In this document: positions 349 to 47,509 of the stretch, piece by piece
How positions within the stretch are numbered: position 1 is the first letter of the stretch
How the letters are laid out: the number at the start of each line of letters is the position of its first letter
From: Gammaproteobacteria bacterium
Lineage (GTDB): Bacteria; Pseudomonadota; Gammaproteobacteria; Pseudomonadales; JAUIET01
Assembly: GCA_030429735.1 (NCBI GenBank)
Contig: JAUIET010000005.1
Span: 13,905-77,904 of the forward strand
DNA length: 64,000 nt
Reading direction: 5' to 3'
The notes under the pieces: model-generated
What the model saw: the letters and a program-made list of their open reading frames with translations, nothing else
What the model was told of the DNA's origin: nothing
Database searches by the model: none
Made by a program: the position numbers and the translations under genes

Positions 349-620
349 ATTAAGGAAGCTCTGAAAAATACCCAATGCCTCTGCGTGACCTGTAGCGTGC
401 CGTGGTGAGGCGCGTCGAGAAGGCCAAGGCTGGGTGTCCTTGGCGAGCGGCGCAACGAAGCCACGGTGCGCTACAGGCCGCGCCCTGCGGGGCTTACAGG
501 CGAATCCAGCCTTGTCGTTGCGAGTTCTTGACTTACCACCAGTAAGCCTGCGTACTCGCGCCTCAACTCTGGATTCGCCTGTAAGCCAGAGGCATCGGGT
601 ATTTTTCAGAGCTTCCTTAA
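349..620. repeat. Nested-palindrome MITE/REP-like element, copy 1 (full length, orientation A)
   Basis: About 33-bp terminal inverted repeats: ttaaggaaGCTCTGAAAAATACCCaATGCCTCTG ... CAGAGGCATCgGGTATTTTTCAGAGCttccttaa. It contains internal hairpin module A (389..477) and module B (19-bp arms at 491..509 and 569..587). Related copies lie at 11388..11680 and 22278..22457. Confidence 0.9.
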
Positions 621-10272: not shown

Positions 10273-11391
10273 ATGATTATGAGAACAAGAAGAGAAATGT
10301 TAGTTTCGTTGTCGGCTGCGAGCGCGCTGGCCGCTACTGGCTGGTCTGGCTCGCTAGTGGCGATGTCTGGTACACCGGCGACGGTAAACAGGCAGATTGT
10401 ATTGGCGTCTCGGCCAAAGGGTAAACCGACACTGGATAATTTTCGACTTGAAAAAAGCGCGATAAAACCACCTGCCACCGGTGAGCTGTTACTGAAAACG
10501 CGTTACCTGTCACTGGACCCTTACATGCGCGGTCGAATGACCGCCGGCCCAAGCTACGCGCAAAATGTCGCGCTGAACGACGTAATGCTGGGTGGCACAG
10601 TATCTGAAGTACTTGAAAGTAAACACCCTGATTTTGCAGCTGGCGATATTGTGCTTTCCAATTCCGGCTGGCAGGAGTATGAAACCACCAGTGCGCAAGG
10701 CATTCGGAAACTGGATCCGCGAATCAGCCGCCTGTCCTATGGGCTTGGCGTGCTTGGGATGCCCGGCTTGACGGCCTATGTGGGTCTGCTTGATATTGGT
10801 GAACCAAAACCAGGTGAAACCGTCGTACTGGCTGCATCCACGGGTGCGGTAGGCTCGGTGGTTGGCCAAATTGCGAAATTAAAGGGTTGCCGTGTGGTGG
10901 GCATTGCCGGCGCCAAAGAAAAGTGCGAGTACGCCGTGTCGGAGCTGGGCTACGACGCCTGTGTCAGCCATTATGATGACGATATGGCGAGCCAGCTGAA
11001 AGCAGCCTGTCCTGACGGTATTGACGTGTATTTCGAGAACGTTGGCGGCTCGTCCTGGGAGGCGGTTATGCCATTGCTGAATACCCATGCCAGAGTGCCT
11101 GTATGTGGTCTTATCGCTCATTACAACCAGACAGAACTGCCACCCGGACCGGATCGTATGTCGGTACTGCAATCAGTGATTCTGACCAAGCGCATCAAAA
11201 TGCAGGGCTTTATTATTTCCGATCACGCTGATCGAATTCCTGAATTTGTGACTAATGTATCCACCTGGCTGCAGCAGGGGAAAATTAAATACAAAGAAGA
11301 CGTGGTTAACGGCCTGGAAAATGCGCCTGATGCGTTTCTCGGTTTATTCTCAGGTGCAAATTTTGGCAAGCTGGTAGTGAAAGTGAGCTAG
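10273..11391 (+). CDS. MDR-family NADP-dependent oxidoreductase (YncB/CurA / prostaglandin reductase-like) with N-terminal Tat-like signal
   Basis: The core from NRQIVLASRPKGKPTLDNFRLE...YLSLDPYMRGRM...AASTGAVGSVVGQIAK (Rossmann) is typical of the family. A 36-aa extension MRTRREMLVSLSAASALAATGW...LVA precedes it, with an AAGGA SD. Confidence 0.8.
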   Translation: MIMRTRREMLVSLSAASALAATGWSGSLVAMSGTPATVNRQIVLASRPKGKPTLDNFRLEKSAIKPPATGELLLKTRYLSLDPYMRGRMTAGPSYAQNVALNDVMLGGTVSEVLESKHPDFAAGDIVLSNSGWQEYETTSAQGIRKLDPRISRLSYGLGVLGMPGLTAYVGLLDIGEPKPGETVVLAASTGAVGSVVGQIAKLKGCRVVGIAGAKEKCEYAVSELGYDACVSHYDDDMASQLKAACPDGIDVYFENVGGSSWEAVMPLLNTHARVPVCGLIAHYNQTELPPGPDRMSVLQSVILTKRIKMQGFIISDHADRIPEFVTNVSTWLQQGKIKYKEDVVNGLENAPDAFLGLFSGANFGKLVVKVS

Positions 11392-11680
11392 GGCAGCTCT
11401 GAAAAATACCCGATGCCTCTGGCTTACAGGCGACTCCAGCATTGAGGCGCGAGTTTGCAGGCATACTGGCCGTACGTCAAAAACTCGCAACGAAAAGGCT
11501 GGAGTCGCCTGTAAGCCCCGGAGGGCGCGGCCTGTAGCGCACCGTGACTTTGTTGCGCTCCTCGCCAGGGACACCAACGGTAGGCGCTTTAGGCGACCAG
11601 CACTGGCCTTCGGAACGCGCCTCATCACGGCACGCTACAGGCCACGCAGAGGCATCGGGTATTTTTCAGAGCTGCCCTAG
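11388..11680. repeat. Nested-palindrome MITE/REP-like element, copy 2 (full length, inverted interior)
   Basis: Same terminal inverted repeats (ctagGGCAGCTCTGAAAAATACCC...GGGTATTTTTCAGAGCTGCCctag). The interior is the reverse complement of copy 1, with about 20 extra bp in module A. The left end overlaps the TAG stop of the upstream gene. Confidence 0.9.
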
Positions 11681-22272: not shown

Positions 22273-22277
22273 ACCTT

Positions 22278-22457
22278 GGGCAGCTCTGAAAAATACCCAA
22301 TGCCTCTGCGCGACAGGCCGCGCCCTCCGGGGCTTACAGGCGAATCCAGCCTTTTCGTTGCGAGTTTTTGGCGTACGGCCAGTATGCCTGCAAACTCGCG
22401 CCTCAATGCTGGATTCGCCTGTAAGCCAGAGGCATCGGGTATTTTTCAGAGCTGCCC
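22278..22457. repeat. Nested-palindrome MITE/REP-like element, copy 3 (short variant lacking module A)
   Basis: Same terminal repeats and module B as copy 1, but the roughly 84-bp hairpin module A is precisely absent (ctgcgcgac|aggccgcgcc). Confidence 0.9.
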
Positions 22458-22460
22458 TTG

Positions 22461-46176: not shown

Positions 46177-47509
46177 CTTTTAATATTGTGCCATTCTTCA
46201 GGGCCACGTCGATAGCGTGAATTACGGATTGCGAATGACGCTCGCCCAGCAATATTCCTTGAATTGCGCTGCGACCTGCGTCTACGTTGGCACTGAAGCG
46301 GCCGGCAACTGATACCAGGTTCGCCCCATGAACACTGCCGCCAGCAGAAAACGTGGTAGCCGCAGTCGTGCTTGTCCACTGCCCATTCCAATCGGGTCGA
46401 CTGCCGAAGCTAATGGTGATGTTGGCGGTGGTGGATGTGTTGCGCTGCAGGCTGCCGGCGAAGTGCAAGCTGATTCCCTGACCGCCATTATTGATACCTT
46501 CAGTCGTTAGTTGATCCAGGGTCGCCTGACTGCTGGCAACGCCCCAAACAAAATGCCCACCGTCTGCAGGTCGGTTGGCGTGACTGGCACCGTGTTCAAC
46601 GAACCCAGCGGTGCCGTGCCCCCACAGTCCGCTGGCAACGATCAGTTCGCCAGCATTGTTTGCTGTGAAGTCGCCGGCAACCCCGGATTCAACATCGCCG
46701 TTGCTCGCATGAAACGCGCTTTGCCCCTGGTAGCTGCTGGCAGTCATTCCCGTCAAGGACGCAATTTCATTTTCGCCTCCGCGATCAAACACGAACTGGC
46801 TGCCATCGCTTGCCAGATCGAAGCGGCCTACGGTTTGGTCTTCCGGCACCGAACAAAAGTCTGGATCAAGTACTGCGAAACCACAACTGCCGCCCGCTTC
46901 GCAAAGGCCTAACGGGGGCTCAGGGATCATCGGGTCGATAGGGTTCATTGGGTCTGTTGGATTCATTGGGTCAACTGGTGTCATCGGATCTATTGGTGCG
47001 ATGGGGTCCATGGGATCGACCGGATTCATTGGGTCGACCGGGTTCATTGGGTCAACCGGGTTCATTGGGTCAACCGGGTTCATGGGATCCACGCCATTCG
47101 GCGGACGATTACCCGGCGTAAACGTATCCGCGAACTCCGGGCGAAACTCGTAGTCATCGTGTAAAACAAGCGATTGAGGGGCGTCGGCTTCTGGTCCGGA
47201 TGCAGGGCTGAGCGCTTCCCACGGTCCCCAGCAGCGCACTGAATTGGCAGCGGCTGGATCAGCGCATGGGTCTTCAACCGGTAGCTCTTCAGCCAGACGT
47301 GCAGTATCGGCAGCAAGCAGTTCCCGGCATCCTTCAACCAGGTGAGCGGCTACAGAATCAGGATTTTGTGCCCACTGCTCGAGAATTTCAACGCAGTCGC
47401 GCTTACTGGTGGCAAGACCCGTAGCCACGGCCTGCGCGGCGACAAATAGAAATGACAGGCCAAGCAAGGCGCTAACTACTTTCCTGCCAGGTATATTCAT
47501 GAAAGACAC
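46145..47509 (-). CDS. Secreted repeat protein with TbpB/hemophilin-like C-terminal beta domain (candidate T11SS cargo)
   Basis: SPI-type signal (...FVAAQAVA|TG, no lipobox) and a 4-Cys N-domain, followed by about 10 DPMNPV-like hexapeptide repeats. The Gly/Ser-rich C-terminus (ISLHFAGSL..ANITISFG..FSAGGSVHGANLVSVAGRFSANV..IQGILLGE) shows the alternating pattern of 8-strand handle/barrel domains. Confidence 0.45.
   Translation of the reverse strand: MSFMNIPGRKVVSALLGLSFLFVAAQAVATGLATSKRDCVEILEQWAQNPDSVAAHLVEGCRELLAADTARLAEELPVEDPCADPAAANSVRCWGPWEALSPASGPEADAPQSLVLHDDYEFRPEFADTFTPGNRPPNGVDPMNPVDPMNPVDPMNPVDPMNPVDPMDPIAPIDPMTPVDPMNPTDPMNPIDPMIPEPPLGLCEAGGSCGFAVLDPDFCSVPEDQTVGRFDLASDGSQFVFDRGGENEIASLTGMTASSYQGQSAFHASNGDVESGVAGDFTANNAGELIVASGLWGHGTAGFVEHGASHANRPADGGHFVWGVASSQATLDQLTTEGINNGGQGISLHFAGSLQRNTSTTANITISFGSRPDWNGQWTSTTAATTFSAGGSVHGANLVSVAGRFSANVDAGRSAIQGILLGERHSQSVIHAIDVALKNGTILKDVGHLLETQP
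46926..47095 (-). repeat. 18-bp in-frame tandem repeat (about 10 units) encoding (D-P-M-N-P-V)n
   Basis: Plus-strand units such as gttcattgggtcaaccgg are repeated head to tail. The central units are near-identical and the flanking ones are degenerate. Confidence 0.9.

Follow-up and report, generated by a model that had tools for sequence, protein, structure and literature searches.

Palindromic repeats at gene ends in a gammaproteobacterial genome as probable IS5-type MITEs from a family with a conserved, polar, Y-shaped interior

Three odd palindromic repeats in a 64,000-nt stretch of gammaproteobacterial DNA (hereafter the window: C20:13905-77904 in a draft assembly of 5.03 Mb, in 24 contigs and 97% complete) are, with high probability, copies of a non-coding, non-autonomous IS5-type MITE that lands on CTAG or TTAA, often on stop codons. 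The family to which they belong spans the class and has an interior that is conserved, polar and Y-shaped. MITEs of the IS5 group are a known kind of element, but this family is apparently undescribed, with no entry in Rfam or in the literature searched.

The three copies are present where the initial annotation had placed them, with edges that can be refined to 354-616, 11392-11676 and 22279-22456. The inverted repeats it described at their ends are real, but the length of about 33 bp that it gave for them combines two features: a 30-bp terminal inverted repeat (TIR) and a palindromic 4-bp target duplication. The 30-bp TIRs read GG[A/C]AGCTCTGAAAAATACCC... and are 97-100% complementary; a search for a 26-nt terminal motif gave six hits in the window and none in 100 shuffles. 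Nearly all of the interior is self-complementary and non-coding; ORFs across it appear on both strands by chance only.

Copy 1 (354-616, + strand) is a full-length, 263-bp element of subfamily I (GGAAG... ends) in which arm A precedes arm B, and it is bounded by the same TTAA target-site duplication at 350-353 and 617-620. Its left TIR, GGAAGCTCTGAAAAATACCCAATGCCTCTG (354-383, + strand), shares 15 of its first 16 nt with MITEPsy1 and 11 with E. coli IS5; the right TIR occupies 587-616 on the - strand. Hairpin module A and the central junction (CGCCC-UGCG-GGGCUU) span 379-499, sense on the + strand, and are supported both by covariation and by a score of 124.9 bits (E = 9e-25) with R1, a covariance model of arm A plus junction built on the + strand. 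Module B (471-591, sense on the - strand) is a diverged inverted copy of module A, scoring 33.8 bits with R1 (E = 2.5e-5) and folding better as the - strand.

Copy 2 (11392-11676, - strand) is a 285-bp element of subfamily II (GGCAG... ends) in inverted orientation, lying between CTAG target-site duplications at 11388-11391 and 11677-11680; the oxidoreductase gene upstream (10273-11391) has its stop codon in the TAG of the left duplication. Its module A is on the - strand (11509-11651) and its module B on the + strand (11417-11537; R1 ~34 bits). The apical loop of module A holds a 22-nt insert at 11574-11595, CGCCTAAAGCGCCTACCGTTGG as read on the - strand, and this 22-nt unit is also found in family members of two other genomes, at other positions. 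The insert has a REP-like look, and is the sole REP-like part of the element. Copy 3 (22279-22456, + strand) is a 178-bp subfamily II derivative without module A, consisting of the TIRs, the junction (22304-22339) and module B (22314-22431, sense on the - strand; R1 ~34 bits). Since CTTG is non-palindromic, the CTTG flanks of this copy (22275-22278 and 22457-22460) are a true direct repeat.

The gene context was also as first described. The upstream stop codon lies 38 nt before the flanking repeat in copy 1 (42 nt before the element), within the flanking repeat in copy 2 and 2 nt before it in copy 3 (6 nt before the element), while copies 2 and 3 are situated between convergent genes. The flanking genes are unrelated housekeeping genes, encoding an FtsX-type permease, a DUF3604 protein, an oxidoreductase, a PhoD phosphatase, a glyoxalase-fold protein and a DUF4124 protein.

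A family of three copies describes the window correctly but not the genome, where 50 TIR hits resolve into 22 pairs and six solo ends. The possibility that the solo ends are IS termini was rejected: they are truncated relics. Searching this genome with a profile of the wider family gave no additional, more divergent members. The copies form two subfamilies (GGAAG... versus GGCAG... ends) that are ~89% identical to each other, with 97-100% identity (about 98.5%) within each, and they include variants without arm A (178 bp, three copies), without arm B (159 bp) and with the 22-nt insert (five copies). When their insertion sites were checked, the 22 paired copies had 4-bp target duplications: the 4-nt flanks were CTAG in 16 of 22, CTTG in two, CAAG in one and TTAA in one, and they were identical on both sides in 19 copies, with one mismatch between flanks in the other three (e.g., TTAG/CTAG).

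Among the options raised earlier, that of a non-autonomous mobile element (MITE) is the one borne out, by the TIRs, the 4-bp target duplications, the IS5-type ends and empty orthologous sites. Three genomes of the same genus (G003, G004 and G005) have an empty site with a single TTAA at the position of copy 1, and in all three the site of copy 3 is a 6-18 bp gap between the same convergent genes, the element being absent. G003 and G005 both keep the CTAG at the stop codon used by copy 2 but have no element at that position. Among carriers of the same TIR, G001 (the MAG Gammaproteobacteria bacterium Co_bin.231) is the closest. None of the testable insertion sites is shared between it and the window genome, and its copies show ~88% identity to those of the window, against only ~75-77% for the flanking genes. 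From the sequences, we infer that the copies in this genome are relics of recent bursts, and that their mobility is historical.

Flanks from other genomes point in the same direction. Identical 4-nt flanks were found in 44 of 60 relatives, 23 of them non-palindromic (CTAA 11, TTAG 8, CTTG 2, ATAG 1, TTAT 1), and the targets overall are dominated by CTAG, TTAA, CTAA and TTAG, with CTTG, CAAG, ATAG and TTAT as minor ones. These data bear on the alternative of an IS630/Tc1-mariner-type MITE (Correia-like), in which only TA would be duplicated and the outer flank bases would belong to the inverted repeat. Most flanks are palindromic with a central TA (CTAG, TTAA), and there the two readings are alike. 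A TA-only duplication is nevertheless excluded by the 23 elements with non-palindromic, identical 4-nt flanks, which are direct rather than inverted repeats; moreover, the CTTG and CAAG flanks contain no TA, the ends equal IS5 ends, and the partners that reside in the same genomes resemble InsH of IS5. An IS630-type origin is therefore highly improbable.

The ends of the element and of its relatives connect the family to the IS5 group. The family TIR consensus, GGnnnCTCTGA, matches IS5 at between 11 of 16 positions (window) and 16 of 16 positions (a member in genome G080): the E. coli IS5 ends, taken from NC_000913, are GGAAGGTGCGAATAAG and GGAAGGTGCGAACAAG, which the G080 member bears at 16/16 and 15/16. 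Four places (G315, G402, G066 and Bacterioplanes sanyensis KCTC 32220) yielded IS5-group elements or remnants whose ends resemble those of the local MITE, with transposase remnants beside the matching ends that are 50-63% identical to InsH. IS and MITE with matching ends are co-resident in G315 and G402; in G315, the IS end is GGAGCCTCTGAATAATTCTG and the MITE end is GGAGCCTCTGAATAACTCTG. The best match for the window is in B. sanyensis KCTC 32220, which has a 1142-bp IS5-group IS at no fewer than six sites (at least six, with CTAG or TTAG flanks); its left end, GGCACCTCTGAAAAATACCCC, equals the window subfamily II TIR at 19 of 20 positions, and its transposase gene was readable in part, with the rest masked. 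Derivation of the interior from subterminal sequence of an IS5 parent was rejected, since three IS5-group elements or remnants are without the modules.

The window had been noted to contain no transposase, and for IS5-type genes this holds across the whole assembly, in which PF05598, NF033581 and tblastn with IS5-like pieces gave no IS5-type transposase. The closest relative with the same TIR likewise has no matching transposase. Two PF01609 hits were considered as the parent and rejected: the one on C18 is an IS4-like element with unrelated ends, and the one on C22 is a broken IS4-like fragment beside an IS110-like gene. No contig ends in a TIR, except one that runs into a MITE. The copies thus look stranded, since no IS5-type transposase was found in this draft (24 contigs, 97% complete), though a copy of the IS may lie in unassembled sequence. 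In the order sample, IS5-type transposase genes were present in 7 of 32 module-bearing genomes versus 12 of 119 module-free genomes; the link between module and transposase is at most a weak association, and most carriers are without a partner.

In the mechanism we favor, an IS5-type transposase would recognize the TIRs (~20-30 bp, GGnnnCTCTGA...), excise the element and insert it at YTAR tetranucleotides, here mostly CTAG, where a 4-bp staggered cut followed by repair would produce the 4-bp target duplication. The duplication would regenerate a TAG stop codon and, with CTAG being rare, surviving insertions would be expected to accumulate on or after gene ends and between convergent genes. No tetranucleotide is rarer in this genome than CTAG (3400 sites, observed/expected 0.17). 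Among 82 elements (22 from this genome and 60 from others), 18 adjacent genes stop inside the target duplication (16 with TAG, two with TAA), seven more genes end in the TGA of the TIR, and 21 elements lie between convergent genes. There was no orientation bias relative to genes reading into these elements (17 from the arm A side only, 20 from the arm B side only). The position at gene 3' ends can therefore be attributed to the CTAG/YTAR target, since TAG is often a stop codon and is regenerated by the duplication, together with selection against disruptive insertions.

An extragenic, highly structured sequence at gene 3' ends could also be a REP/BIME/REPIN palindrome spread by a RAYT (HUH) transposase, or a host intrinsic terminator that was never mobile, and the initial annotation had called the repeats REP-like. 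REP/BIME/REPIN sequences are imperfect palindromes of ~20-40 nt with a GTAG-type head, linked to RAYTs and without TIRs or target duplications. By contrast, the elements described here have 30-bp TIRs, 4-bp target duplications and precise presence or absence at orthologous sites; they measure 263 bp versus ~35 bp for REPs (roughly eight times the length), and neither the TIRs nor the arms contain a GTAG-headed REP core. The REP-like label is therefore abandoned. Nor are the elements native terminators at those gene ends, since congeners lack them there, and this pair of explanations is scarcely credible.

The internal hairpin modules A and B, which had been proposed from the window, are real. 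Copy 1 folds as a Y, formed by the TIR stem and two long arms, with an RNA folding energy of -172 kcal/mol (z = -14); the energy is -166 kcal/mol for the complementary strand and -94 kcal/mol with DNA parameters. The consensus of an alignment of 26 members (~70-80% identity) is also a Y, comprising the TIR stem, arm A, a two-pair central hairpin and arm B. Paired cells amount to 93.6% in this alignment versus 35-41% with the partners slid by 1-3 columns, changes have occurred on both sides in 80 of 95 pairs, and the covariation score is 0.60 versus 0.06-0.09 in the slid controls. None of 500 shuffles reached any observed measure, though these statistics, like those on strand polarity below, overstate the independence of the evidence because the family members are related. 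The stems vary freely. The fixed parts are the loops and the centre (AAGGCG, GCTGGTTG, CAACGC and CGCCC-TNCG-GGGCTT), and 24 of 26 members have a centre that fits C(UNCG)G.

The two arms are inverted homologues of one ~100-nt module: on the opposite strand, R1 recognizes arm B in almost all elements, and in some genomes both arms score 60-75 bits. Fold and strand polarity are conserved in each module. In arm A, G.U pairs number 73 versus 12 A.C, and the fold is better by 9.3 kcal/mol as the + strand (24 of 26 members). Arm B is the mirror image, with nine G.U versus 35 A.C (one invariant column excluded) and a fold that is better by 9.6 kcal/mol as the - strand (23 of 26 members). In each module, therefore, the strand that folds better reads inward from the TIR of that module. 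This mirrored polarity is not what a strand-wide mutation bias would produce. Inheritance from a polar ancestral module could give the mirrored pattern, although the stems have turned over many times, which argues against it. CsrA/RsmA binding was considered and found no support: inspected by eye, the conserved sense-strand motifs are AAGGC/AAGGY, not GGA, and each module has only one CAAGGA, on the antisense strand and half within a stem.

The interior extends well beyond this genome. BLAST with the interior alone found it in other genera and families with quite different TIRs, all of the form GGnnnCTCTGA..., and a scan for the arm A apex found it in Porticoccus and other Porticoccaceae, Spongiibacteraceae, Halieaceae (Haliea, Halioglobus), Cellvibrionaceae, Microbulbifer and MAGs. 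Hits of the same scan in Campylobacter concisus had no TIRs and were set aside as chance. R1 detected the module in 32 of 151 genomes and 24 of 96 genera of the order sample (about a fifth), and in 21 of 150 genomes of a class sample with one genome per other family (E <= 1e-6). Hits often numbered 15-23 per genome, with no more than 23 candidates scored in each, and every inspected hit had the same architecture and a length of ~263-268 bp. Compared with the curated families of Rfam, the window had no match at the gathering score, and positions 330-640 had none at E <= 10. A plasmid collection searched by blastn in distant mode also gave no match.

The conservation of fold and polarity suggests that the interior is selected in single-stranded form, or acts on single-stranded nucleic acid. 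We tentatively propose that the ~100-nt polar module (AAGGCG...GCUGGUUG...CAACGC, with covarying stems and the C(UNCG)G centre) may be a functional single-stranded element, most likely of RNA, and it could block read-through in either orientation, protect 3' ends or bind a protein. That the module acts on RNA reading in from either flank, as a hairpin block or a 3'-end protector, is plausible if still somewhat doubtful. The mirrored polarity of the arms fits such an RNA-level role, since transcripts could enter from either side; the bidirectional terminator or mRNA stabiliser suggested initially would be a role of this kind. On read-through RNA, the module would form a 3' hairpin block or insulator, which may make insertions tolerable in either orientation. 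In the window genome, a closing stem (UACCC...GGGUA) has A5 and U5 flanks on both strands, and the loop it encloses is the 200-nt Y; the U-tract after the closing stem is present in some family members only and is not conserved in the family. A simple terminator scan found nothing at the element.

Alternatively, the arms may have no function, being palindromes kept complementary by DNA-level template switching, intra-strand correction and gene conversion, with loops that are conserved through recent common descent and horizontal spread of the MITE. Several observations are consistent with this. In a single copy (C24:59097), both terminal bases have changed together (TGAAG...CTTCA), which selection would hardly favor; a compensated change of one pair from A-T to C-G is segregating within a subfamily of 98.5% identity; exact deletions of an arm have arisen repeatedly, as would be the case for unstable palindromes; and the identity of 88% for the MITE versus ~75% for flanking genes between two species suggests horizontal spread. 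However, stems have been wholly replaced between families while the loop and junction motifs and the length of 263-268 bp stayed fixed, and G.U-type mismatches persist on one defined strand per arm instead of being corrected away. We regard functionless arms as possible but doubtful.

A further alternative places the function of the interior in transposition itself: acting in cis, a folded or cruciform centre might join the ends, or the loops might bind the transposase or a host factor, in which case selection would act on the element's own mobility and not on a host-level RNA function. Mobility is the only trait selected in a selfish MITE, the same interior occurs with at least 10 different IS5-like end sequences, like a portable chassis, and its length is tightly conserved. 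This explanation is nonetheless unlikely: IS5-group elements and remnants in the same genomes have no modules, MITEPsy1 (100 nt) transposes without them (PMC3189936), another MITE combines the same terminal 20-mer with a 144-bp interior of unrelated sequence, and strand polarity of the fold is not expected of a double-stranded cut-and-paste substrate.

As a MITE, the element is ordinary, and it accounts for three odd intergenic palindromes without new biology. Annotation as IS5-type MITEs is warranted for ~28 loci of this genome and for tens of loci in many Gammaproteobacteria of marine and soil origin. The repeats break assemblies and yield spurious ORFs, and those on stop codons can alter 3' UTRs. 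Less ordinary is the retention of the Y-fold, the fixed loops and length, and the mirrored polarity while the transposase-binding ends were exchanged. If the RNA-level function proposed above is true, a mobile element would be distributing a ready-made, orientation-independent regulatory hairpin, and the family would represent a widespread, undescribed class of structured RNA on a transposon chassis, with ends exchanged to suit the local transposase. It would also be a readily testable system, as there are hosts in culture (Bacterioplanes sanyensis, Porticoccus and Microbulbifer).

Comparison with known systems places the elements among bacterial MITEs, since they are small, non-coding and dispersed, and have TIRs, a fixed 4-bp duplication and ends shared with an autonomous IS. 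The ends of E. coli IS5 (InsH) begin GGAAGGTGCGAA(T/C)AAG, and the window TIR shares 11 of 16 positions with them. IS5 makes a 4-bp duplication at a YTAR target. The elements have this YTAR duplication and IS5-type ends, and no InsH-like transposase was found in the same assembly. E. coli IS5 differs in being a 1195-bp, autonomous element with 16-bp ends and no Y-shaped interior, and the window genome is without such a gene.

MITEPsy1 of Pseudomonas syringae pv. phaseolicola, whose presumed parent is ISPsy2 (IS5 family), makes a 4-nt duplication at CTAG or YTAA, and its transposition was shown experimentally (PMC3189936). With a length of 100 nt and TIRs of 18 nt, it occurs in P. syringae genomospecies 2 alone (PMC3189936). 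Its end, GGAAGGTCTGAAAAAGCC, and that of the window element, GGAAGCTCTGAAAAATAC, are equal at 15 of the first 16 positions, a comparison confined to the terminal 16 nt. Like the window element, MITEPsy1 is non-coding, depends on a transposase in trans and is found in or next to genes. It lacks the double-hairpin interior, however, whereas the window element is 263 bp long with 30-bp TIRs, dimensions that place it outside the MITEPsy1 family proper, and its mobility is inferred only.

Correia (NEMIS/CREE) elements of Neisseria and ERIC/IRU elements of enterobacteria resemble the window element as small non-coding repeats with long inverted repeats. Correia elements differ in making a TA duplication and in their link to other transposase families. 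The window family has no sequence in common with Correia or ERIC, neither of which has two inverted polar hairpin modules, although the window element, like them, is found at gene ends and between convergent genes. Correia and ERIC elements are co-transcribed with their neighbors, fold stably as RNA and are reported to affect transcript processing, stability or termination (PMC10969869). Together with SPRITE, these co-transcribed, structured MITEs are precedents for RNA-level effects, and a dispersed small Gram-positive repeat with a terminator-like fold, though unrelated in sequence to the window family, is a precedent for a mobile repeat as terminator (PMC10969869).

The MITE is a source of stop codons for neighboring genes. 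In seven cases among the 82 family members (22 copies in the window's own genome and 60 relatives elsewhere), the adjacent open reading frame enters the element by 11 nt and ends at a TGA within the conserved CTCTGA motif of the terminal inverted repeat (TIR), as at C7:17576 and C21:195863 of the window's genome. Since this TGA is joined by the TAG or TAA of the target duplication, the element gives stop codons to the genes it clips. In the window, a repeat finder detected a coding repeat at 46905-47120 with an 18-nt period and at least eight GGGTTCATTGGGTCNACC-like units, which probably encodes a hexapeptide-type repeat protein.

The MITE is itself a target for insertion. A 22-nt unit, CGCYTARAGCGCCTACTGTTGG, has inserted into it at differing positions in three unrelated genomes, every time in the context T^unit^TG: in the apical loop of arm A in the window's genome (11574-11595, minus strand), in arm B in G489, and directly past the junction between the arms in the MFD09779 bin. 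Further sites occur in the window's genome (C8:4389, C8:91860, C9:105265, and C17:398648) and beyond it (locus L229; loci L110, L116, and L147, among others). The unit consists of a mini hairpin followed by a CCTAC tail, and the start of its reverse complement resembles a GTAG-headed REP. Variants at C20:303695 and C22:64221 of the window's genome, in a different repeat context, carry compensatory stem changes. The 22-nt unit may be a tiny mobile unit in its own right.

Two sets of transposase genes in the window's genome bear no relation to the MITE: an IS4-family element (C18:470-1730) with a 383-aa transposase and ends ...CACTGCTGTCCCACATTT, and a broken IS4-like transposase fragment adjoining a 400-aa IS110-like gene (C22:167370-169070). 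The best candidate for the type of autonomous partner is a multi-copy, 1142-bp IS5-group insertion sequence of Bacterioplanes sanyensis KCTC 32220 (NZ_BMYY01000007; L235 928-2069, also L241 and L247-L251), with ends GGCACCTCTGAAAAATACCCC and GGCACCTCTGATTTTCACC and TTAG or CTAG flanks; 44 bases are masked within its transposase gene.

A 144-bp MITE (DATDVK010000095, L239 1301-1444) in a candidate-phyla-radiation MAG, 'Candidatus Peribacteraceae', shares the terminal 20-mer GGAAGCTCTGAAAAATACCC with the window MITE, is flanked by CTAG/TTAA, and has an unrelated interior, and shows end type and interior to be independent cassettes. Alternatively, this contig may have been misbinned into the MAG. 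On the Hahella sp. SMD15-11 chromosome (L240 6807-7080), an IS5-group deletion derivative of ~270 bp with TTAA flanks retains transposase-coding fragments between its ends, GGAACCTCTGAAAAATACCCC and GGAGCCTCTGAATAAC, and is a textbook IS-to-MITE intermediate.
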